This document shows positions 1 to 58,197 of a stretch of DNA of 64,000 nucleotides, one piece after another. The DNA is from Escherichia coli (GTDB lineage Bacteria > Pseudomonadota > Gammaproteobacteria > Enterobacterales > Enterobacteriaceae). The stretch lies in NCBI RefSeq assembly GCF_002854065.1, contig NZ_CP024147.1; one strand, 5' to 3'. The notes beneath the pieces are model-generated. The model was given only the letters and a program-made list of their open reading frames with translations, was not told where the DNA came from and made no database searches. Within the stretch, counting starts at the first letter, position 1. Each line of letters begins with the position of its first letter. Made by a program: the position numbers and the translations under genes.

Positions 1-126
1 AAGCAAAACTTCAGACACCTGACATATAAAAAATAATCTCGGTGTGAGATGCTTTACGTCTTCCAAGCCCCCTTCCTTGCCGTAAATGGAAAGATACATC
101 TAATTATAGAATTTATATGTTTTACC

Positions 127-702
127 CTACGGCAGTGCTGGCCATTCAATATCCTGTGCAGTTGACGTATCAACACGGTTCAGCAACACCCGATACTTTT
201 TCCAGGCTTCCAGCAATGAGGTTTCTTCCTCCGTTGCGATTTCCAGATCTACAGCATCCTGAAGTGGCGCAATATGCTCACTGGCTACCTGCATCAGGCT
301 GTTTTTTGTTTCTTCCGCCTCCCGGATCCGGAACAGTTTTTCTGCTTCTGCATCTTTCACCCAGGCTGTGCCGTTCCACTTCTGAAACTCCCCTTCCGGC
401 GATAACCAGGTAACATTTTCCGGTAACGGACCGAGTTCAGAAATAAATAACGCGTCCCCTGACGCTACGTCATAAACCGTTTTACCCCGATGGTCTTCAA
501 CGAGATGCCACGATGCCTCATCACTGTTGAAAACAGCCACAAAGCCAGCAGGAATATCTGGCGGTGCAATATCGGTACTGTTTGCTGGCAGACCTGTATG
601 AGGCGGAATATATGCATCACCTTCACCAATAAATTCATTAGTTCCGGCCAGCAGATTATAAATTTTTATGGTCCGTGGTTGTTCACTCATTCTGAATGCC
701 AT
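127..702 (-). CDS. phage tail fibre assembly protein (Tfa family)
   Basis: 191-aa ORF; recognised as lambdoid Tfa; sits immediately 3' of the tail-fibre fragment. Confidence 0.8.
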
Positions 703-1271
703 TATGCAAGCCTCACAATATAGTTAAATGCGATGTTTTTGACGGTGTTTTCCGCGTTACCAGCAGCGTTAACGGTGATGGTGTGTCCATGTGAACCAAT
801 CGCAACGGAGTGCGTATGAGCACCAATACCGACAGTATGTGCGTGTGCACCTGCGCTTGCAGCAGTGCCGGACAGTGAGTGGGTACTGGTATAATCCCAT
901 TGAATATTTACACCAGTCGCATAATTTCCGATTGCAACGTAAATATCGTAAGTATCACCAGATGTATTGACCCAGGCAAAATTTGTAAACCCTGCCGATG
1001 TGCGCTGCCATAAAGCACCAGTAATCCCCTTCGGATTACCATTACCTGCACGCAAAACAAGTTCAGATATACCTGCCTGTTGAGGTGAACCGACGTTATA
1101 TCCAGCCCCACCAATCAACGTAATTGAAACAACAGAACTCGCCTGCGGCATGGTTACCGTTGCTAATTTGAACCAACCAGCACCACCGCTGAATGACATT
1201 GTTGTTGAGTTAAGCGTACCAATATCTTTCGGTGTCAGTGTTATATCCGCTGAAAGCGCCTTACCATTCAC
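702..1271 (-). pseudogene. side tail fibre, C-terminal fragment only
   Basis: 189-aa open frame ending in the His-rich HxH tail-fibre tip motif; frame opens on GTG with no N-terminal body; lies directly after gene L. Confidence 0.6.
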
Positions 1272-1406
1272 CTTACGGGCAGAAGGTATTCACGCAGGGA
1301 AAATATCTTTCCCCCTCCGGTGTTCTCACCACGAAGCCGCACGACTCCGCTGGCGCACATCGCCGGGCGTGCGCCAGAATCGCTGATTCTGTCTCTGTCA
1401 TGGGAT

Positions 1407-2105
1407 TCACTGCGAAAGTTTGTTAATGGAAAGGAAGCCGCCAAAGTTGCCGACGTTATTGCGAAACTTACAGCCGCTCAGGCATTTGCTGCATTTATCC
1501 TTCGTGATATCGGACGTCGGCTGATCATATTCATCCGCGACCGCCGGACCGTGATAACCGCACTCATCACCGCGATAGGTCCAGGTGCAGGTGTTGGCCA
1601 GCATGATACGTCCCGGAAAAACGGCACCGTCCGTTTCCGTCGGCGTGGACAGTACAAAAGAGGCACTGACCGCGCTCAGTTCGCTGCACTGCTCGATGCG
1701 CCAGCGGCTGATCACCTCCTGCTCCGGATCGGCGTCACTGTTTCCGTTGACGAAGTTCACCGCATCCAGAAAACGGGCGTAAACCTTACGCCGGACCACC
1801 GTTCCTCCGACCAGACTCTGCAGGTCTTCCGCCATCCCGGTGACCATGCCGTGCAGGTTAGAAACCGTCAGTGTCGGACGGGCAGCACTGCCTTTGCCGT
1901 TCAGTTCAAATCCCGTCCCCTGAATGGGATACGCCTGATACTGTCGCCCCTGCCAGGTGACCGGCTCACCTTTATCGTTCTGCTCATTACAGAAAAAGTA
2001 GCGTTCCCCGCCTACCTCGGTCAGGTCGATTTCCCAGAGCACCACCTGGGCTGACTGAGTGAGGCGTGTCGTCTCATGATGTGTTTCCTGTGGAATATCC
2101 TGCAT
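1407..2105 (-). CDS. minor tail protein L (lambda gpL-like)
   Basis: 232-aa ORF closely matching lambda L as recalled (MQDI...CSKCLSGCKFRNN...INKLSQ). Confidence 0.85.
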   Translation of the reverse strand: MQDIPQETHHETTRLTQSAQVVLWEIDLTEVGGERYFFCNEQNDKGEPVTWQGRQYQAYPIQGTGFELNGKGSAARPTLTVSNLHGMVTGMAEDLQSLVGGTVVRRKVYARFLDAVNFVNGNSDADPEQEVISRWRIEQCSELSAVSASFVLSTPTETDGAVFPGRIMLANTCTWTYRGDECGYHGPAVADEYDQPTSDITKDKCSKCLSGCKFRNNVGNFGGFLSINKLSQ

Positions 2106-2114
2106 CAGAGACTC

Positions 2115-2444
2115 CTATGCCACGACCTGTTCAAAATCTGCCGTTATGGTTACCCACAACGCCCCCACGCTTGCCGACCATTTACGACAAACCACCCTGA
2201 TCGGCTTCCAGTCATAAGGTGGCGTCCACTGAAATGCGCGGACGCCACCGTGCCGTTCCAGAAAGGCTTTTAAAGATGGGTGTTCACATTTACGAACACG
2301 TATAGTCACGCTGTAAATCGACAACTGGTTATTCAGTCCCGCCGCACGACGCTGTTCATAACCATCGCCCAGCTTCACTGTCACCACTTTCGGCTCTGAT
2401 ACCACATTCATATCCGGGCGCACTTTCCAGTGAAACGTCTCCAT
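2115..2444 (-). CDS. minor tail protein M (lambda gpM-like)
   Basis: 109-aa ORF, lambda M-like, immediately upstream of L. Confidence 0.8.
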   Translation of the reverse strand: METFHWKVRPDMNVVSEPKVVTVKLGDGYEQRRAAGLNNQLSIYSVTIRVRKCEHPSLKAFLERHGGVRAFQWTPPYDWKPIRVVCRKWSASVGALWVTITADFEQVVA

Positions 2445-4648
2445 TACCGATATGCTCCACTTAACCGACCACCATCACGGGCCTGCTGTTGCATAAAGTC
2501 CGCTGCCGCTTTTTTCCCAAGGTCATAAACCACCTTCAGGGCAGCCGGACCTATCTGCCCGTTCGTGCCATCGTTATTGATCTCGATGTTGTACTGCGGG
2601 GCAAACATCGCCATACCTGAACCACCAATATCCGCCACAACCCCCAGCTTACCGTCAGCACCACGACGCAGTGGCAGAATGGCTTCAGGTCCAGCTTCCC
2701 CCATCACACCCGCGCCTTTTGCAAAAGCAAAAAACGTCGGACGGTTAACCACCGTGCCACTGTAACGACTCAAATCAGCAGACTGATAAATCCCCCCATT
2801 GGCATTCAGGGAAAGGCTGCTGAGATCAAATCCCAGTACACTGCCAATCCCTTTTATCGATTTCATCATGGTTGCCTGCGCCAGGATTTTCGCCATATCT
2901 GACAGCACCGAAGAGGTGAAGGATTTGAAGTTGAGTTTGCCGGTAGTGACAAAAGTTGCCAGGCCATTTCCCATGTTGCTGAAGGCTGATGAGAACACCT
3001 GTTCTGCTGTTCCTGCCGTATTGTCTGCATCCACGGTAAAATCCTGAAATGCACGCAGGACTCCGTTTTTCCAGTTACCCTGCACAACTTCAAGCTGTTG
3101 CCAGTAACGGCGATTCTCATTCAGTTGTCGGTTCAGGCTCTCCGTCAGCGCCTGCTCGGCCTTTCTGTAGTCATCCGTGTTATATGTCCCTTTCTGCTCA
3201 CTATCCCGCCTCAACTGCTCCAGCTGTTGCTGGTATTTCTGGCGAAGACTCAGTTGTACCTGATATCGCTGCCGCTGCTGATCACCCATACCCACCGTGG
3301 CGATATCCAGGTCATGTTGCTGACGCTGAGCGCGCTCTTCTTCAGCCAGTTGACTGGTCAGCTGAATTGTTTTTTTCTTCAGATCGTTGAGTGCCGTCTG
3401 TTTCTGAAGCTCCTGCTGTTTTACATCCAGCAGCGTCAGTGCCTGAATCAGTTCATCTTTACGGGCCAGCACACTCTTTTCATCTGCCGTCAGTTTTTTC
3501 CCGTCCAGATCGCTGATGCGCTGCTGCAGAGCCAGAAGCTGTTTATGCGCTTCTGTCATCTTTTCAGTGGCAATGCCTGCTGACTGTCTTGCAGCAGCAA
3601 TCTGTCCTTCCACCTGTGCCTGTTGCTGACTGTACTGCAGCAATAACCGGGTGGCCTCATCATTACGGGGTTCGCGTGTTTTTTTCTTACCGGATGCCAG
3701 GGCTTTCTCGTAACGTTCATTTTCACGTTGTATCGCCGCATCCCTGACAGCCTGATCGGCGTACTGCATGGCATTAATACGCGCAATTTCACGCTGATGT
3801 CGTGCTGCTTCCGTTTCATTCATCCGGTTCAGTGCAGCATTTTCAGCATTACGGCGTTTCTGTTGCTCCTGATAATTCCGCTCTGCCTGCTCTTTTGCAT
3901 CCTGCAAATCCTTCTGGCGTTTTTTCTCCTGAAGCTCGTTAAGACGCTGCTGATCGTACTCAACCTGAGAAGATGATGCCGTCCAGGGGAGTCTTTTCAC
4001 CCGCGACACTTTCTCCTGTAAAGCGGAAATCTGTTCATCCAGCGAGTCTTCACGACCAATATTCATGGCCGCATCCCAGAAACGACTCCATAAATCAGAC
4101 AGATACTTCAGCGTACTGCCCAGCGCATTGAGGTTATTATCAATATCCGCAGTACGCCGACCGGTTTCCTCTGCCAGTGCAGACATGGCTATCCGTGCCG
4201 CATCACTGGACCGCCCCTGTTCCCCAAGGACGCGTATCTGTTCAAGCTGAGTGGCAGTAAGAAAATGCAGCTCATTGTCCAGAGCCTTCGCGGCATTTAC
4301 AGGATCATCCTTCAGCCGCTTAAACTGATTTATGGTATCGCTGACCGACTGGCCAACCGATCGCTCCATCTGTGCGGCAGCTCTCGCCACCATACGGGAT
4401 GGATCATGAACAGAGTCTGCTGCCTCATGCTTCACACTAAACAGGGCTGGCCCGACATGGTGCAGGGCGTAAACGGGGTTCCCCCTGACAGTCGCAGCCA
4501 CAGGAGTGTTGGCCGCGAGGAGCCGTTTTTTTACTGTGTCCCGGTGAAGCCCAAAGGCCTCAGCGATTTTAAAAACACTCCAGTAATAAGCATCACCGAT
4601 CCCGCTCACATTTGACATAAGCAACTCCATCTGGCAGGTGAAAATCAT
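2444..4648 (-). CDS. tail tape-measure protein (lambda H-like C-terminal two thirds) with a divergent, possibly Nu1/small-terminase-derived N-terminus
   Basis: 734-aa ORF; C-terminus ...INNDGTNGQIGPAALK...RDGG resembles lambda H; N-terminal ~170 aa has an HTH-like segment; ATG at 4648. Confidence 0.65.
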   Translation of the reverse strand: MIFTCQMELLMSNVSGIGDAYYWSVFKIAEAFGLHRDTVKKRLLAANTPVAATVRGNPVYALHHVGPALFSVKHEAADSVHDPSRMVARAAAQMERSVGQSVSDTINQFKRLKDDPVNAAKALDNELHFLTATQLEQIRVLGEQGRSSDAARIAMSALAEETGRRTADIDNNLNALGSTLKYLSDLWSRFWDAAMNIGREDSLDEQISALQEKVSRVKRLPWTASSSQVEYDQQRLNELQEKKRQKDLQDAKEQAERNYQEQQKRRNAENAALNRMNETEAARHQREIARINAMQYADQAVRDAAIQRENERYEKALASGKKKTREPRNDEATRLLLQYSQQQAQVEGQIAAARQSAGIATEKMTEAHKQLLALQQRISDLDGKKLTADEKSVLARKDELIQALTLLDVKQQELQKQTALNDLKKKTIQLTSQLAEEERAQRQQHDLDIATVGMGDQQRQRYQVQLSLRQKYQQQLEQLRRDSEQKGTYNTDDYRKAEQALTESLNRQLNENRRYWQQLEVVQGNWKNGVLRAFQDFTVDADNTAGTAEQVFSSAFSNMGNGLATFVTTGKLNFKSFTSSVLSDMAKILAQATMMKSIKGIGSVLGFDLSSLSLNANGGIYQSADLSRYSGTVVNRPTFFAFAKGAGVMGEAGPEAILPLRRGADGKLGVVADIGGSGMAMFAPQYNIEINNDGTNGQIGPAALKVVYDLGKKAAADFMQQQARDGGRLSGAYR

Positions 4649-4798
4649 GTTTATTTATATATTTCAATTAATTGCAAACTGGTCTAATGACAGGGAGAAA
4701 AAAATATTGTACAGGTGAAAAGAGAAATAACTTTTAATTATCAATAAATTACCAAACATGCTGCCGCCGCCATGGAAATGCAAAAACTAGCCTTTTTC

Positions 4799-4818
4799 CG
4801 CGACGCTCCCGCCCCGTG
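4799..4818 (-). other. cos-like site (candidate cosN region)
   Basis: Minus strand reads ACGGGGCGGGAGCGTCGCGG, close to lambda cosN ACGGGGCGGCGACCTCGCGG as recalled; ~150 bp upstream of the ORF start at 4648, inside a GC-rich island. Confidence 0.4.
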
Positions 4819-4995
4819 GCAGGGGCCCCCACCGGGAGGACCCGACAGCCTGACAGCCGTGACGAGCATCTGATACAGCGCTTTACATAATGGCATAGGA
4901 ATAATTCAGAAGGACATCACAGCATGCCCACACAAATTAGTGTGAGTGTCCTGTTTCTTCCTACGCACAGGACTGACGAGCATGAGGGGAAAATA

Positions 4996-5163
4996 TGCGA
5001 ACCATAAATGCCTCATCTTCAGCAATGCAGCCGGCATCCGAACAGGACGATATTGTAAATTCACCTAATTACGAGGACATTGCAGTAGTTGAATTGCAGC
5101 TCTGTATTAGCCTGACAGTGACAGAATGCGATACTGACTCTGTCACAGGTGAAATAGTTTGAA
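4996..5163 (+). CDS. hypothetical small protein (55 aa)
   Basis: ATG preceded by GAGGGG at Shine-Dalgarno spacing; below the ORF-track cutoff; no recognised homology. Confidence 0.25.
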
Positions 5164-5182
5164 TGATTAGCAGTTATGGTGC

Positions 5183-5389
5183 TCAGTCAACCACCAGGGA
5201 ATAATCCTTCGAATTCTTATCGTGCTTCACCAACGCTGCCTCAATTGCCCTGAATGCTTCCAGAGACACCTGATGTTCTATACATGCAATTACAACATCC
5301 GGGTAACTCATAGAAATGGTGCTATTAAGCATATTTTTTACACGAATCAGATCCAACGAGAGTTCATCAGCAGATTGTTCTTTATTCAT
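5183..5389 (-). CDS. hypothetical prophage protein (68 aa)
   Basis: ATG start with GGAG Shine-Dalgarno 7 nt upstream; divergent from the DUF1398 gene. Confidence 0.5.
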
Positions 5390-5689
5390 TTTGTCGCTCC
5401 ATGCGTTTGCTCGTCATCTAGCGGTTAAAATATTACTTCAAATCTTTCTGCATAAAAGAGGAAAAGTATGAAAGTTTGAGTACATCGACCTTACATACAT
5501 CTGTCGGTTGCATATCCCTCCTGGATGCCAGCAAGGCTCAACTTTGTTACGCAATCAACACTATTCATTAAAAACAGGCTTAATATTTGACATAAATCAT
5601 CAACAAAACACAAAGAGGTCAGACCAGATTGAAACAATAAACACGATAATGCAAACTACGCGCCATCGTATCACATGGAAGGTTAACCA

Positions 5690-6100
5690 ATGGCTCAGGC
5701 TGCCATTTTTAAAGAAATATTCGATCAAGTGCGTAAAGATTTAAACTGTGAATTATTTTATTCTGAGCTAAAACGTCACAATGTCTCACTTTATATTTAC
5801 TATTTAGCCACAGATAATATTCACATTGTGTTAGAAAACGACAACATAGTGTTAGTAAAAGGACTCAAAAAGGTTGTAAATGTTAAATTCTCCAGAAACA
5901 AACATCTTATAGAGACCTCCTATAATAAGTTGAAATCAAAAGAAATCACATTTCAACAATACAGGGATAATCTTGCTAAAGCAGGAGTTTTCCGATGGGT
6001 TACAAATATCCAGGAACACCAAAGATATTACTATGCCTTTGATAACTCATTACTATTTACTGAAAGCATCCAGAAAACTACACAGATCTTACCACGCTAA
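5690..6100 (+). CDS. ydfO: DUF1398-family prophage protein (YdfO-like)
   Basis: 136-aa ORF, ATG with GGAAGG Shine-Dalgarno; position between the cos region and gnsB. Confidence 0.6.
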
Positions 6101-6251
6101 ACCATAACGTCCGGCTTCTCTCACTCCTGAGCCGGACTGCATTGGTTTAATAAAAACCATCAACAATTGTGATTTAGATATTCGGAACCATTCAAATATA
6201 ACAAAACCCCGTAAAAACGAGGTTTATGGATAAATTTTATTATTGAATACA

Positions 6252-6425
6252 TCAGATTAAATTAATCTTGACATCATAGCTTTCAAGACCCGTCATTTTT
6301 TCCCGTGCGGTAAACTGAATACTGGTAACTTCTTTCCCGGTCTTTTTCTTAAGTTCAATAATTTTTTTTGTTATATATTCAGAAATATCTGCTTCTGCTT
6401 TTGTTTTTAAGTCTTCAATATTCAT
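6252..6425 (-). CDS. gnsB: GnsB-family small protein (57 aa)
   Basis: Manual translation MNIEDLKTKAEADISEYITKKIIELKKKTGKEVTSIQFTAREKMTGLESYDVKINLI; missed by the ORF track because it is under 60 aa. Confidence 0.75.
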   Translation of the reverse strand: MNIEDLKTKAEADISEYITKKIIELKKKTGKEVTSIQFTAREKMTGLESYDVKINLI

Positions 6426-6596
6426 CATTTCCTCTTTTAGTCTGTTATGACTTTCCAGTTACACAGTAAATCGATTATATGGTGCAAACGTGTAAAAGAT
6501 AAGATGAAAAATCGCAATAATCAACATACGATAGTCTAAATTTTACACAAACAGACAAAGAGAATTTTCCTGAATTATCAATGCAATAGCATCAAA

Positions 6597-6752
6597 TCAA
6601 CTCAAGAGCCTTATTGCTGCTTCCAGAATTTCTTCTGAAGTAACATGTCGATCCGCGGCTACATAAATGACTTTATGATCTCCGGTCAGAGATGGAAACC
6701 CTGCGGCCATTACAGTAAGGTGTGTTTTTTCGCCATTTGGATATTCACGCAT
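6597..6752 (-). CDS. small prophage protein (51 aa; possibly YnfN-like)
   Basis: In-frame ATG giving MREYPNG...; longer alternatives start at 6827 (ATG) or 6869 (TTG); start uncertain. Confidence 0.4.
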   Translation of the reverse strand: MREYPNGEKTHLTVMAAGFPSLTGDHKVIYVAADRHVTSEEILEAAIRLLS

Positions 6753-6875
6753 GATGGTGTTAACTCCAGTCATCGCTGGCACTACCACTGCTGGTTCAGA
6801 GTTAAAAAAAACTATGATTTTTTTCATGATGTTACCGTAGTATGTGAGTATCCATCGAATAGACACCAAGCAAAA

Positions 6876-6900
6876 AAGCTCCCGAAGGAGCCTTCATTTT
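6876..6900 (-). terminator. rho-independent terminator-like hairpin
   Basis: Minus strand GCTCC-TTCG-GGAGC followed by TTTTTTGCTT. Confidence 0.45.
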
Positions 6901-7098
6901 CACTTTTTTAAATCCAACGACAGACGGCTGGCATTTAAGTATTGTGAAATATTATCAAATGTAATCATCATTGATTTACAAAAGATACATTTTGCCCCGA
7001 AAGGATTCATGTCAGAAACATCAAAAGATGATGTTCTATACTGGGAACCATGACAACACGGGCATCTAAAGTGAATATGGTTTGTAATATTGTCTACC

Positions 7099-7311
7099 TC
7101 AAAGCGCCACTACATGAACAGCGGCAGGACCTTTAGGTCCGTTCTCAATACCAAATTCAACTTCCTGATTCTCAGTTAATGTTTTGAAATCGTTGCTCTG
7201 AATTGCTGAGAAATGGACAAACACATCTTTGCTGCCATCTTTCGGCGTGATGAAACCAAAACCTTTTTCAGGGTTAAACCATTTCACTAAACCAGTCATT
7301 TTGTTAGACAT
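7099..7311 (-). CDS. cspI: cold shock protein CspI
   Basis: 70-aa CspA-family [26 protein letters not shown]... Confidence 0.9.
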
Positions 7312-7673
7312 AATTATTACCTTTTGAAGAAATTAGCCCTTGGGCAGAATGGTCCGAAAAAAAATATCAGAGAGAAAAACCAACAAGGAAATCCCAAGAG
7401 GTACAAATAATAAAATTATAACAATGACTGCTTCAGATAAATTTGTAACAAACCAGAACACCATTAACGCATGATTAACCACCCATAGCAAGGATTACTT
7501 TTGTAAAGAAAAACACAGCAATGAAAGAATAGCTTTATTTATTAATAAAACGTGTCATTCTGATTAAGACCTTTTATCTTACCCTTAAGATTTCAGGAAT
7601 TTTGGCTCATGGAAGAGTCCTTTTTATTTAAATTTTACATTCCGCGATGTAAATGTTCCGATTTAATATTACC

Positions 7674-8698
<1,025 letters not shown>

Positions 8699-8702
<4 letters not shown>

Positions 8703-9010
8703 AGATATTTATGATGAGGACGCTCGTGCTTATTGGCAGGATTTTCAATCTTAAAGGAGTACTGATGCTGCAGATAAGACTCAACTTTTTCTGACAATTT
8801 TTCTGCTACTTCCAGGAAGACTTGCCGGACGCTCCTTCTGGCTGCTGCCTCATAAAACTCCAGCGCAGCTCCTTCAACACGGTCCATGGCGACATCCAGG
8901 TCAAAAATTTCACCGTCAAAGCGTTCTTTGTCCTGTAAGGCTACAGTTACCGTAACTTTGTTCTCAAAATTACGGACTCCTTTCACAACCAGTTCATAGT
9001 CTTGAGTCAT
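8699..9010 (-). CDS. ydfR: prophage protein YdfR-like, located between holin and endolysin
   Basis: 103-aa ORF whose stop overlaps the endolysin start. Confidence 0.65.
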
Positions 9011-9014
9011 TGGA

Positions 9015-9230
9015 TTACTCTCCTCTCGCAGCCTTACGCCTGTCTTCTTTAATCTTGAAATAAAGATTTGTCAGATACGTCAGCAGGCCAAAAACCAGGC
9101 TACCCAGCACACCGATTGCAGCCCACTGTGACGGAGTTACTTTATCGAGTAACTGCAATGCCCAGAAACCAGCATTACCCGCCGATGTGCCATAGGCAAC
9201 ACCTGTTGTTAACTTATCCATTGATTTCAT
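9015..9230 (-). CDS. essQ: phage holin (S-like)
   Basis: 71 aa from [14 protein letters not shown]...; GAGG Shine-Dalgarno; ORF track shows a longer upstream extension. Confidence 0.8.
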
Positions 9231-9449
9231 ATCCTCACCCCGATGTACACGGATGGTGCAATATGTTTGAAAAGATCGGAGTCTACGGGGTAGTTTTGAC
9301 AGCACACGCTGTTCTCAACGGCGCTAAAGAAACATACACATTAAAAATGTGAGTAATTATTTTGAAAGAAAGTCATATATAAAATAATAATACGAGAAAT
9401 GTTTTCATATTTAGTGTACTGTATACGGCCATTTATACAGGAAAAGCCT

Positions 9450-9620
9450 ATGTCAGAACGTAAAGACTCAAAATCACGCCGTAATTATCTCGTTAAATGT
9501 TCCTGCCCAAACTGCACCCAAGAGTCAGAACACAGTTTTTCAAGAGTACAAAAAGGTGCCCTTTTGATCTGCCCTCATTGCAACAAAGTATTCCAGACAA
9601 ATCTTAAAGCTGCAGCCTGA
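9450..9620 (+). CDS. small zinc-ribbon protein (CxxC...CxxC), 56 aa
   Basis: ATG at 9450 with AGGAAA Shine-Dalgarno; cysteine pairs CPNC and CPHC; followed by a terminator. Confidence 0.5.
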   Translation: MSERKDSKSRRNYLVKCSCPNCTQESEHSFSRVQKGALLICPHCNKVFQTNLKAAA

Positions 9621-9680
9621 TTGATTTTATTAGTAACAAGTATTTTTTATATTTTAATAATATATTTAAAGTAGATAATA

Positions 9681-9702
9681 AAAAACCCGCCTGAGCGGGT
9701 TT
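9681..9702. terminator. bidirectional intrinsic terminator-like hairpin
   Basis: AAAAA-CCCGC-CTGA-GCGGG-TTT between convergent genes. Confidence 0.5.
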
Positions 9703-9983
9703 GAGATTGTGGTGCTTTTTGTGGGAGTCATCCACTTACGCACTTTGTTTTGCCATGCCAGCAGTTAGCTTCTGCTGTAAAACTATTCATGCCGCAAACC
9801 TGCACTTCACCACAATGGTTAGCATACTTTTCCTGATTAAGATTTTGCCAAATATGCTGGCCATTGTTTCATGTATTGGACCTCCTTAATTTTTATTAAA
9901 GAAATCCAATATTCACTACTCTGTCCGTATCTCTACTCAGGCATCAGCCTTCTTCGTTATCGTATACAGACGAGCGATGAATT

Positions 9984-10199
9984 TTAATCAGTAATGATGA
10001 CATTTGCTGCTGCAGGACCTTTAGCACCACTCTCTATAGAGAAGGTAACCTTTTGACCTTCAAATAAGGTTCGATAATTATCATTCTGAATCGCAGAAAA
10101 ATGCACAAACACATCTTTACTACCATCAACAGGAGAAATAAAGCCGAAACCTTTATCAGCGTTAAACCATTTTACTAAACCAGTCATTTTATTTGACAT
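9984..10199 (-). CDS. cspB: cold shock protein CspB
   Basis: 71-aa CspA-family [26 protein letters not shown]... Confidence 0.9.
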
Positions 10200-10509
10200 T
10201 CTACATTCCTTAACTTGAGCCTTTCGGCATAAATGGTTTGCATAACAGAAACGACTTCGTACTTAATTGGAGAGACTCAAAGAAGGAATAAGTGAATAAC
10301 ACCTGAAATGAGAACTGCTTTAGTAAACTACTTCGTATATCGTCTGTTCTTCAAACCGACGCAGTCATTAACTCATAGTTGAACATATGAAGCAATGTTT
10401 ATTTTAGACATCCAGCCACCTTCAACCCTATCAAAAAAGTAGTTTTCTCCAGGAACGTGTGTATGGTGCACCAGGTTATCAGTATTAAGGAGTTTTTCTG
10501 TCCCCTAAA

Positions 10510-10715
10510 ATGACAGGAATTGTCAAAAACTTTGACTACAAAAGCAGCAAAGGTCTTATATCCCCATCCGATGGCGTATCGATGCCCAGCTTCAGGTTTC
10601 AGCTCTCAATCTTCGAGATGCAGAAGAAATTACCACAGGATTACGCGTGGAATTTTGCCGGATAAATGGTTCGCGTGGACCTTCAACTCCCAATGTTTAT
10701 CCTGGGATGAGATTC
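10510..10715 (+). pseudogene. cspF: cspF-like cold shock gene, frameshifted
   Basis: [22 protein letters not shown] in frame 1; homology continues as [32 protein letters not shown] in the -1 frame; one base missing around 10573-10578; original stop lost. Confidence 0.65.
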
Positions 10716-10744
10716 AATATCTCTATTGCCCCATTTAAAGCACA

Positions 10745-10775
10745 AAAACCCGCTTATCAGCGGGTTTTCTACTTT
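10745..10775 (+). terminator. rho-independent terminator
   Basis: ACCCGCT-TATC-AGCGGGT followed by TTTTCTACTTTTTT. Confidence 0.55.
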
Positions 10776-10874
10776 TTTCTAAACGTCGGATACACAAAGC
10801 CCATCGTTGAGAAAATCTTATCCATGTTTTTTGAAAAATGCAAACATCATGTCGCCATCTTCAGCAAAAATCAT

Positions 10875-12508
<1,634 letters not shown>

Positions 12509-12516
12509 CCACTACA

Positions 12517-16328: not shown

Positions 16329-16889
16329 ATGCCAAGCGCCCACAGTGTTAAGCTACGCCCGCTGGAGCGTGAAGATTTACGCTATGTACATCAACTCGAC
16401 AATAACGCCAGTGTGATGCGTTACTGGTTTGAGGAACCCTACGAAGCCTTTGTTGAACTCTCTGATCTGTATGATAAGCATATTCACGATCAGAGCGAAC
16501 GACGCTTTGTGGTGGAATGTGACGGCGAAAAAGCCGGTCTGGTGGAGTTGGTGGAAATTAACCATGTACATCGCCGCGCAGAATTTCAGATAATTATCTC
16601 CCCGGAGTATCAGGGGAAAGGTCTGGCAACCCGTGCCGCCAAATTAGCAATGGACTATGGCTTCACCGTTCTCAATCTCTATAAGCTGTATCTGATCGTC
16701 GATAAAGAGAATGAAAAAGCGATTCACATTTACCGCAAGCTTGGCTTTACGGTTGAAGGTGAATTGATGCATGAGTTCTTTATTAATGGTCAATATCGTA
16801 ATGCTATTCGCATGTGTATATTCCAGCATCAGTATCTGGCAGAGCACAAAACACCGGGTCAGACTCTCCTGAAGCCGACCGCACAATAG
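16329..16889 (+). CDS. speG: spermidine N1-acetyltransferase
   Basis: 186-aa GNAT ORF. Confidence 0.9.
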
Positions 16890-16891
16890 CA

Positions 16892-17163
16892 TTAATAATA
16901 ATCGATCGTATTTTTGATGGTGTAAACCCGTTCGACGGCGGGTTTTACTCCTTCATCAACAATGATCAGCTGACAGTCCACTGGATTGGCGTGACTGTCA
17001 TATTCACAGCTCTGTTTTACATTACCAACCCGTTGATTGTTCAGTAAAGTAACCGCTGTGTAATCTAATTTTTTGATCGGATCCGTTGATGGCGTGGCGC
17101 TGACAGATAATGTTTTGTCGTTACTTTTCGTGGTTTTACCCAGCGGATACCCCTGATCATCAT
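16892..17163 (-). pseudogene. ynfC: ynfC lipoprotein gene, 3' portion (interrupted by IS2)
   Basis: Reading frame continues from 18495 across the IS: ...EYRYD|QGYPLGKTT... Confidence 0.8.
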
Positions 17164-17174
17164 TGGATTTGCCC

Positions 17175-18080
17175 CTATATTTCCAGACATCTGTTATCAC
17201 TTAACCCATTACAAGCCCGCTGCCGCAGATATTCCCGTGGCGAGCGATAACCCAGCGCACTATGCGGATGCCATTCGTTATAATGCTCGAACGCCTCTGC
17301 AAGGTTCTTTGCTGCCGTTAACCCGTCTGGTTTGGGCATGATACTGATGTAGTCACGCTTTATCGTTTTCACGAAGCTCTCTGCTATTCCGTTACTCTCC
17401 GGACTCCGCACCGCCGTGTTCTTCGGTTCAAGTCCCAACATCCGGGCGAACTGGCGTGTTTCATTAGCCCGGTAGCATGAACCATTATCCGTCAGCCACT
17501 CCACTGGAGACGACGGAAGATCGTTGCCGAAGCGGCGTTCCACCGCTCCCAGCATGACGTCCTGTACTGTTTCACTGTTGAAGCCGCCGGTAGTGACCGC
17601 CCAGTGCAGTGCCTCACGATCACAGCAGTCCAGCGCGAACGTGACACGCAGTCTCTCTCCGTTATCACAGCAGAACTCGAACCCGTCAGAGCACCATCGC
17701 TGATTGCTTTCTTTCACGGCCACTCTGCCTGTATGTGCCCGTTTCGATGGCGGTACAGCAGGTTTTCGCTCAAGCAACAGCGCATTCTGGCGCATGATCC
17801 GGTAAACACGTTTGGCATTGATCGCAGGCATACCATCAAGTTCTGCCTGTCTGCGAAGCAGCGCCCATACCCGACGATAACCATACGTGGGCAGCTCTCC
17901 GATAACATGGTGTATACGGAGAAGCACATCCGTATCATCAGTGTGACGACTGCGGCGGCCATCCATCCAGTCATCGGTTCGTCTGAGAATGACGTGCAAC
18001 TGCGCACGCGACACCCGGAGACAACGGCTGACTAAGCTTACTCCCCATCCCCGGGCAATAAGGGCGCGTGCGCTATCCAC
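17175..18080 (-). CDS. insD: IS2 transposase InsD (OrfB)
   Basis: 301-aa ORF. Confidence 0.9.
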
Positions 18081-18403
18081 TTTTTTGCCCGTCCATATTC
18101 AACGGCTTCTTTGAGGAGTTCATTTTCCATCGTTTTCTTGCCGAGCAGGCGCTGGAGTTCTTTAATCTGCTTCATGGCGGCAGCAAGTTCAGAGGCAGGA
18201 ACAACCTGTTCTCCGGCGGCGACAGCAGTAAGACTTCCTTCCTGGTATTGCTTACGCCAGAGAAATAACTGGCTGGCTGCTACACCATGTTGCCGGGCAA
18301 CGAGGGAGACCGTCATCCCCGGTTCAAAGCTCTGCTGAACAATTGCGATCTTTTCCTGTGTGGTACGCCGTCTGCGTTTCTCCGGCCCTAAGACATCAAT
18401 CAT
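18038..18403 (-). CDS. insC: IS2 transposase InsC (OrfA)
   Basis: 121 aa from [18 protein letters not shown]... Confidence 0.9.
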
Positions 18404-18494
18404 CTGTTCTCCAATGACTAGTCTAAAAACTAGTATTAAGACTATCACTTATTTAAGTGATATTGGTTGTCTGGAGATTCAGGGGGCCAGTCTA

Positions 18495-18974
18495 ATCATA
18501 GCGATATTCCATCTGCATCTGTTTGCTGCTGGCTTTAATCACGAAGCCATTATCATCGGTTTCCCAACTCACCCCGGCAGAAGGTAATTCTGCTAGCTGG
18601 CATTTTCCCTGTAAACGTACTCTCTTCTCCAGCGTCTCGGCATCACGGTAATAATTGGCGTCCAGTACCAGAGCGACCACGGTATTATTTTCCAGATCCA
18701 GTAATTCGAGTGAATCAAAACAGCCTTCTTCCGACAAAGTCCCCGAAACACGTTTCGTCACTTCACCTTGCTCATCCATTAATGTCTGAGTGAAATCTTT
18801 TACCGGACCACGCAGCGGATCAAAATCGAATTCATTAGAGAAACTGGCCATCTCAGGAGTAAATGAAAGTGTTACCTCTGTGCGGTCACATCCTGTGAGT
18901 AATATCGCGAGTAAGCATGGCAGTAATTTGTATTTCACATCAGTCACCAGAGAGTAGAGATGATTCTCAATCAT
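18495..18974 (-). pseudogene. ynfC: ynfC lipoprotein gene, 5' portion (interrupted by IS2)
   Basis: 160 codons with lipobox LLTGC; truncated by the IS2 end at 18494. Confidence 0.8.
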
Positions 18975-52883: not shown

Positions 52884-54149
52884 TTACTTCAGCATAAAGT
52901 CATACTGAATACTCATTTTCACATCCCAGTAATTCAGGCGATCGCCCAGCACACTGCCATCGCGCTTTTCCCCCCCTTTATCGGCAGCAAGAAAGAAATT
53001 CATCCCTTGTAACGGCCCTTCGCTGACCCGATAGTTCATACCACCTAAGATACCCGCGCCTTCAATCCGCACATCTCGTTTACTGGATTCATAGCCGCGA
53101 GTCACAATCGGTGCAAATGTCAGTGTAAATTGCGGCGTTAAACGATAGTTGACGCCCAATTGCCAGGACTGCATTCCTTCACGGTTACGATAAAGACTTA
53201 ATGAAAAGGGATAGCCAATGTCGGTATCCACCACGGCACCATTCATTGCATGGCGCAAATAACCACCACTGCCAAATACGCTTCCCCACGGCGCATTCCA
53301 GGTCAATTGTCCACTAACCAACGCCGTTTCATTGGGCTGACTGGTATTACGACTTAAACCTTCGAGCTGCGCGTAAAAGCCGAGCAACTCCCCTTTCAAC
53401 GTATAATTCGGGTCGAGCGGTATGCTTTTCTCGAGAATACTTTGTATCTGATTGGAAACATCTTTCTGTACCGATGCCCCCAGAGAATAGCGACTGGTAT
53501 CATCATGCCAACTGGCGGCTAAAAAAGAACGTGCGCGATGTTTATCGTATTTTCCCGTCTGGCTGTTATAAACCCCTTCATCACGAATACCGGTTGTTGA
53601 ATCGGTCCATAAAAATACTCGTGAACGCCACATTCCCCACAGATCAATATTTGGCGTTAACGCCCAATAACCTAATGCTCCTTCAGAAACTGTCGGTAAT
53701 GTACGTTGCGAACTGCCAGCCATTAACGGAATACGATAAGGTAAGCTACCATAACTATAATCCGTCCCGAAGCGACCTAATTTAAGCTGGCTATTTTCAC
53801 TGGGTTTTATTTTTACTGCCCCCAGGGCAAAGCCAAAACTTTTATCACCATCAAGATACCACCGGGTACTCATATCAGCACGAGCACCTAATTTATAAAC
53901 ATAATACGCTCCGCCTTCAACGCCAATAATATTGGAATAATAACCACTATTGAAATCGAGCAATCCTCCCTGTACCCATGCGTAAATATCTCTTCCCGCG
54001 CCAGCACTGGGCTTATCCGCCCTGCGCAATTCGTTTTTCAGTCTGATGCGTAGTCCCGCTTCATCGTCAGCCAGTTGCGCCGCGTAAGCAGAGGTAAGGC
54101 CAGAGGCAGCCGTCAGGCAAATAACGGCCATGGCCACTATTTTTCTCAT
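52884..54149 (-). CDS. uidC: outer membrane glucuronide porin-like protein UidC
   Basis: 421-aa ORF with signal peptide. Confidence 0.85.
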   Translation of the reverse strand: MRKIVAMAVICLTAASGLTSAYAAQLADDEAGLRIRLKNELRRADKPSAGAGRDIYAWVQGGLLDFNSGYYSNIIGVEGGAYYVYKLGARADMSTRWYLDGDKSFGFALGAVKIKPSENSQLKLGRFGTDYSYGSLPYRIPLMAGSSQRTLPTVSEGALGYWALTPNIDLWGMWRSRVFLWTDSTTGIRDEGVYNSQTGKYDKHRARSFLAASWHDDTSRYSLGASVQKDVSNQIQSILEKSIPLDPNYTLKGELLGFYAQLEGLSRNTSQPNETALVSGQLTWNAPWGSVFGSGGYLRHAMNGAVVDTDIGYPFSLSLYRNREGMQSWQLGVNYRLTPQFTLTFAPIVTRGYESSKRDVRIEGAGILGGMNYRVSEGPLQGMNFFLAADKGGEKRDGSVLGDRLNYWDVKMSIQYDFMLK

Positions 54150-54187
54150 AGTTGCACCTTTGATGTTCTGATTATTTTTATTGAATA

Positions 54188-54323
54188 TTAATTAGTGATA
54201 TCGCTGATTAATTGCTGCTGCACTTTTTTACGATTATCAATTTCAACCACGATTTCTTTGAATTTTTTATCCGTGAGCGGATAAAACCAGATAATGACGA
54301 ATGCCAGTAACATAAATCCGCAA
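54188..54323 (-). pseudogene. uidB: uidB 3' fragment (separated by IS1)
   Basis: Encodes ...[44 protein letters not shown] in the same frame as the upstream part once IS1 and its duplication are removed. Confidence 0.7.
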
Positions 54324-54338
54324 GGTAATGACTCCAAC

Positions 54339-54842
54339 TTATTGATAGTGTTTTATGTTCAGATAATGCCCGATGACTTTGTCATGCAGCTCCACCGATT
54401 TTGAGAACGACAGCGACTTCCGTCCCAGCCGTGCCAGGTGCTGCCTCAGATTCAGGTTATGCCGCTCAATTCGCTGCGTATATCGCTTGCTGATTACGTG
54501 CAGCTTTCCCTTCAGGCGGGATTCATACAGCGGCCAGCCATCCGTCATCCATATCACCACGTCAAAGGGTGACAGCAGGCTCATAAGACGCCCCAGCGTC
54601 GCCATAGTGCGTTCACCGAATACGTGCGCAACAACCGTCTTCCGGAGCCTGTCATACGCGTAAAACAGCCAGCGCTGGCGCGATTTAGCCCCGACGTATC
54701 CCCACTGTTCGTCCATTTCCGCGCAGACGATGACGTCACTGCCCGGCTGTATGCGCGAGGTTACCGACTGCGGCCTGAGTTTTTTAAATGGCGGAAAATC
54801 GTGTTGAGGCCAACGCCCATAATGCGGGCGGTTGCCCGGCAT
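54339..54842 (-). CDS. insB: IS1 transposase InsB
   Basis: 167-aa ORF. Confidence 0.9.
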
Positions 54843-55036
54843 CCAACGCCATTCATGGCCATATCAATGATTTTCTGGTGCGTACCGGGTTGAGAAGCGG
54901 TGTAAGTGAACTGCAGTTGCCATGTTTTACGGCAGTGAGAGCAGAGATAGCGCTGATGTCCGGCAGTGCTTTTGCCGTTACGCACCACCCCGTCAGTAGC
55001 TGAACAGGAGGGACAGCTGATAGAAACAGAAGCCAC
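54761..55036 (-). CDS. insA: IS1 InsA
   Basis: 91-aa ORF; A-run frameshift window at the insA/insB overlap. Confidence 0.9.
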
Positions 55037-55091
55037 TGGAGCACCTCAAAAACACCATCATACACTAAATCAGTAAGTTGGCAGCATCACC

Positions 55092-58197
<3,106 letters not shown>

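Follow-up and report, generated by a model that had tools for sequence, protein, structure and literature searches.

A simple, probably recent IS2 insertion interrupts the lipoprotein gene ynfC in an Escherichia coli strain

IS2 is a member of the IS3 family and has been studied experimentally. Its ends are imperfect inverted repeats of 41/42 bp (IRL 42 bp, IRR 41 bp; PMC3299598), and a −1 frameshift at an A6G motif yields the OrfAB transposase (PMC3299598). Transposition follows a two-step pathway in which a figure-of-eight and then a minicircle are formed before an insertion that generates direct repeats (PMC3299598). The copy used here as the reference is IS2A of E. coli K-12 MG1655 (NC_000913.3, 381260-382590), which is itself flanked by the 5-bp duplication ATTAC; a 5-bp target-site duplication (TSD) can therefore be taken as a signature of IS2. 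Papers found in a search on the function of the lipoprotein gene ynfC mention the gene only in passing. One interruption of ynfC by an insertion sequence has been described, an IS1203 copy in the ST302 strain F2_18C (PMC6985150).

The locus described here lies in a 64-kb stretch of E. coli DNA, referred to below as the window, which carries a single copy of IS2. The original prediction held that this copy is exactly 1331 bp long, that it has ATCAT on both sides and that it divides ynfC into two pieces that would be continuous in frame after excision. The features of the locus are as follows, in window coordinates.

16892..17163, minus strand: 3' fragment of ynfC, approximately codons 147-236 (the duplicated ATCAT counted) plus the stop codon, mapping contiguously onto ynfC of strain CUWW06.
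17159..17163, no strand assigned: first TSD copy, ATCAT, which occurs once at the unoccupied site of CUWW06 and K-12.
17164..18494, minus strand: complete IS2, 1331 bp exactly, with its IRL end at 18494 and its IRR end at 17164.
17164..17204, minus strand: IRR, 41 bp, ending ...GGGGCAAATCCA on the minus strand and matching K-12 IS2A.
17175..18080, minus strand: orfB (insD), 301 aa, with a DDE/rve integrase core, 100% identical to K-12 InsD1.
18080..18086, minus strand: A6G (AAAAAAG) programmed −1 frameshift site, a single heptamer at IS position 409 in the orfA/orfB overlap.
18085..18450, minus strand: orfA (insC), repressor/DNA-binding protein of 121 aa with HTH_Tnp_1, bounded as in the K-12 insC1 annotation, stop codon included.
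18453..18494, minus strand: IRL, 42 bp, starting TAGACTGGCCCCC on the minus strand and identical to K-12 IS2A.
18495..18499, no strand assigned: second TSD copy, ATCAT, to the right of IS2.
18495..18938, minus strand: 5' fragment of ynfC, codons 1-148, with GTG start at 18938, signal peptide and lipobox LLTGC, ending at the TAG 18492-18494 in IRL.

The element has the predicted length to the base. In a nucleotide comparison with IS2A, the two copies were of equal length and identical at 1330 of 1331 nt, the sole difference being a synonymous A>C at IS position 606. On the plus strand the element is bounded by TGGATTTGCCCC... at the left and ...GGGGGCCAGTCTA at the right. These are the canonical IS2 ends, TAGACTGGCCCC for IRL on the 18494 side and TGGATTTGCCCC for IRR (plus strand, at 17164), and they agree base for base with those of IS2A; the inverted repeats are imperfect and the termini are of the TA...CA form. 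The interior of the element holds the two overlapping ORFs together with the A6G heptamer. OrfA is 100% identical to K-12 InsC1 and matches Pfam PF01527 (HTH_Tnp_1) and the NCBIfam model of the IS2 repressor TnpA (238.8 bits; cutoff 229). OrfB matches the Pfam families rve, rve_3 and HTH_21 and the NCBIfam model of IS2 TnpB (723.9 bits; cutoff 597). A conceptual OrfAB fusion scored above the curated NCBIfam cutoffs for IS2 transposase TnpB, IS2 repressor TnpA and IS3 family transposase (transpos_IS3). As judged by its sequence, the element is IS2 (IS3 family, IS2 group). All sequence requirements for transposition are intact, and the match to the IS2 characterized by experiment (PMC3299598) suggests that this copy is functional.

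Both ends of the element abut ATCAT, as the original prediction stated, and the element is thus bounded by a direct 5-bp target duplication; for two fixed positions, identity over 5 bp would arise by chance with a probability that we estimate at ~1/1024. ATCAT motifs overlap within the local sequence GATCATCAT, yet the length of the duplication can be fixed at 5 bp, because the site could be compared with its empty counterpart. In CUWW06 the left flank stops at locus position 4706, the right flank resumes at 4707 and one ATCAT is present. Over the 4000 bp of joined flank there is 1 mismatch to CUWW06, whose YnfC protein is identical to the reconstructed one. In silico removal of IS2 and one ATCAT gave an open minus-strand frame of 711 bp, the 236-codon ynfC, identical to the allele in CUWW06 and in strain 100416, as expected if the frame runs on across the insertion. 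Alignment to a reference ynfC, the check named beforehand, gave contiguous flanks and no other IS boundaries. The claim of a simple insertion also holds: there is one copy with a perfect TSD, and nothing has been deleted or rearranged by comparison with the near-isogenic empty site. This comparison is the strongest possible in silico evidence, and it points to a clean, simple insertion after the split from CUWW06 and 100416.

These two relatives were picked by a search with 20 kb of flanking sequence, to which CUWW06 (NZ_CP182139.1) and 100416 (NZ_CM128593.1) were both 100.0% identical; each has an intact 711-bp ynfC. From 12517 to 64000 the window and CUWW06 are collinear, with 99.96-99.98% identity and ~16 substitutions in 49.5 kb, and the only structural differences over this interval are the IS2 itself and 667 bp beside an IS1. 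The insertion had been described as probably recent. Since the nearest relative, at ~16 SNPs in 49.5 kb, has the empty site, the insertion would be recent and lineage-specific, and the two halves of ynfC are otherwise unchanged from the intact allele of CUWW06 and 100416. The insertion is thus probably recent and confined to the lineage of the source strain.

Two other parts of the window bear on its history. The glucuronide porin gene uidC is interrupted by a complete IS1 (768 bp, 54324-55091) with a perfect 9-bp TSD, AATCCGCAA, at 54315-54323 and 55092-55100. CUWW06 shares this IS1 without the adjoining 667 bp (window 53657-54323), which suggests that the IS1 mediated an adjacent deletion there. 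Because the IS1 in uidC is also present in CUWW06, it is older than the split, and the IS2 in ynfC is younger. At the other end, positions 1-12516 hold a defective lambdoid prophage segment with tail tape measure, minor tail and tail-fibre assembly genes and ISEc31. This segment is 99.9% identical to 100416 and was not found in the corresponding region of CUWW06, which has another prophage remnant containing copies of IS1; the backbone from rspB onward is common to both. The region to the left of rspAB is a variable prophage integration area.

Taken together, we consider it almost certain that a functional IS2 transposed into codon 147/148 of ynfC in a textbook IS3-family event that is recent and confined to one lineage. 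We infer the transposition pathway from the IS2 literature (PMC3299598). By the copy-out/paste-in route of the IS3 family, a donor copy would have formed a figure-of-eight intermediate and then a minicircle, which would have integrated at staggered cuts 5 bp apart, and repair of these would have duplicated the target ATCAT. The interrupted gene would then encode an N-terminal fragment of at most 148 residues closed by a TAG that IS2 supplies, and the C-terminal 88 residues would no longer be joined to a translation start or an export signal.

The gene that was interrupted is readily identified. The reconstructed YnfC (236 aa) matches Pfam PF06788 (UPF0257) with 445 bits over positions 1-236 of 236 and the NCBIfam YnfC equivalog model NF002798 with 420 bits (cutoff 263); it differs from K-12 by one residue (F13L), and the gene by 10 nucleotides. 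Its neighbours are speG (16329-16889, plus strand), ynfD (plus) and ynfE (plus), in agreement with the K-12 order ynfA-ynfB-speG-ynfC-ynfD-ynfE; the position of ynfC between speG and ynfD is conserved in K-12, CUWW06 and 100416. The span originally given for the disrupted gene, 16892-18974, is correct at its left edge, which is the ynfC stop. Its right edge is an in-frame ATG at 18974 upstream of the accepted start, GTG 18938, which is the start in RefSeq and K-12 and the point from which the Pfam and NCBIfam profiles align at residue 1. The discrepancy is cosmetic.

The truncated YnfC reads ...MEYRYD and then TAG, the TAG being the first three bases of IRL. At most 148 of 236 residues remain, including ~131 of the mature protein, and the C-terminal 88 are lost. 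The 3' fragment has neither its own promoter nor its own start codon or signal peptide. The source strain has no intact, expressible ynfC ORF, and the gene as it stands is a pseudogene. The original prediction called the insertion inactivating. The loss of 88 of 236 residues is plain from the reading frame, and inactivation is what this loss suggests: the ynfC::IS2 allele is most likely null, or else severely hypomorphic. A lipoprotein fragment of 148 aa could be made, however, and could retain or gain activity. We found no solved structure of YnfC that would show whether a domain is cut by the truncation. Since ynfC is monocistronic between the divergent ynfD and the convergent speG, operon polarity is not expected, and the insertion would appear to be without consequence for the neighbouring genes.

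To place the allele in the species, 5,426 complete E. coli genomes were surveyed; the source genome is not among any of the collections searched. In this set, 5,379 genomes (99.1%) had a contiguous ynfC, 9 had a split or partial one and 38 had none. It is uninterrupted in K-12 MG1655 (b1585, 711 bp), in agreement with the original prediction. Queries of 160 bp across either IS2 junction gave no contiguous match in the 5,426 genomes, only two-piece joins. A megablast search with the whole feature returned 12 of the 5,426 genomes at ≥80% query coverage, all of them multi-piece joins with the IS elsewhere. The exact left-junction 40-mer, CGGATACCCCTGATCATCATTGGATTTGCCCCTATATTTC, had 0 matches in the GTDB representative genomes and JGI metagenome contigs. 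The expectation that the insertion is strain-specific is thus upheld in the complete genomes and, for the left junction, in two larger collections. ynfC is a conserved core gene that is now and then struck by insertion sequences, and the ynfC::IS2 allele appears private to the lineage of the window.

No observation runs counter to this account. There are three ways in which it could be incomplete or wrong. The first is that loss of ynfC was selected, so that the insertion reflects recurrent adaptive inactivation and not chance. Independent insertions in ynfC do exist, IS2 variants in strains TW10590 and TUM9812 and the IS1203 in the ST302 strain F2_18C (PMC6985150), but the gene is contiguous in 99.1% of the 5,426 genomes, and the insertions of the neighbourhood are spread across ynfA/ynfB, speG and ynfC and do not cluster in ynfC. 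In addition, the 12 same-orientation IS2-family insertions in the 3-kb neighbourhood are, by our estimate, about as many as expected if ~25,000 chromosomal IS2 places were distributed at random over 5 Mb. We consider selection for the loss of ynfC very unlikely.

The second concerns effects beyond the loss of the gene. There is a slight chance that the insertion has a regulatory side-effect, with antisense transcription into speG affecting spermidine acetylation and polyamine homeostasis, or that the 148-residue lipoprotein keeps a residual or dominant activity. In its purely regulatory form, this reading has transcription from IS2, from the ynfC promoter or from a hybrid promoter at the IRR junction either driving the 3' fragment of ynfC or altering antisense RNA over speG and thereby changing spermidine acetylation. 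The IS2 transposase genes and ynfC do share an orientation (minus strand), and IS2 ends can supply −35 elements to hybrid promoters (Pjunc). A 102-codon GTG ORF (16892..17200) begins inside IRR and runs into the 3' fragment of ynfC. The convergent, plus-strand speG ends at 16889, leaving a gap of 2 bp to the ynfC stop at 16892, and on the minus strand the interval between the two genes has no predicted intrinsic terminator. Yet a consensus scan detected no promoter-like site at the IRR/ynfC junction; in the promoter and terminator scan of the region, counts were below the shuffle expectation and there was no hybrid promoter at the IS ends. A product of the 3' fragment, having neither signal peptide nor lipobox, could not reach the compartment of YnfC. 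In the wild type, transcription of ynfC is already convergent with that of speG, so that no new topology arises from the insertion. A regulatory effect of this kind is highly improbable. The wild-type speG and ynfC transcripts probably overlap likewise.

The third, that the assembler placed a repeated IS2 in ynfC and the real chromosome is ynfC+, is extremely improbable: E. coli genomes carry multiple copies of IS2 (at a median of 4 places), repeats are well known for causing mis-joins and the source genome is not among the RefSeq complete genomes, but a mis-join would not produce a perfect 5-bp TSD at both ends of a full-length IS2, nor would it leave flanks seamlessly collinear with a near-isogenic genome.

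With transposition of IS2 into ynfC as the preferred reading, the insertion carries little weight beyond strain bookkeeping. The ynfC::IS2 junction, absent from the 5,426 complete genomes, is a unique lineage marker that can be typed by PCR. The source strain is a natural ynfC-disrupted isolate with the near-isogenic ynfC+ relatives CUWW06 and 100416, and it could help to probe the function of YnfC, a highly conserved lipoprotein. The insertion also shows recent IS2 activity in the lineage of the source strain.

Other insertions in this neighbourhood belong to the same class of event, in which an IS3-family element enters ynfC or one of its neighbours. TW10590 has a 1331-bp IS2 variant in ynfC at a position equivalent to ~18922-18927 of the window (locus 3200-4530), and TUM9812 has one at the equivalent of ~18648-18652 (locus 2926-4256). 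These two elements occupy different positions in ynfC from the window IS2. Because they are only ~95.8% identical to it, their insertions are independent events. In TW10590, RefSeq annotates a 714-bp "ynfC" CDS whose start apparently lies inside the IS end; this CDS seems to be either a fusion ORF or an artefact of annotation. The bovine isolate XJW9B277 has IS2 in speG (window equivalent ~16700; locus 2501-3831), and this copy is 100% identical to that of the window. Loss of speG is a known pathoadaptive change in Shigella. The strain designated tolC- has IS2 between ynfA and ynfB, at the equivalent of ~15940, and F2_18C, with its IS1203 in ynfC, belongs to the same class. An IS2 hotspot or orientation bias near ynfC was considered as well and rejected: the search joins same-strand pieces only, and the count matches random expectation. 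The shared orientation of the nearby insertions is thus a search artefact, because pieces were joined on one strand only.

The closest comparison is with IS2A of K-12. The two copies share the length of 1331 bp, both inverted repeats, OrfA and OrfB proteins that are 100% identical, the A6G motif and a 5-bp target duplication. They differ in the base at IS position 606 and in location, IS2A being in yaiX and the copy of the window in ynfC. The locus is an ordinary strain-specific IS2 insertion that most likely knocks out the conserved lipoprotein gene ynfC.
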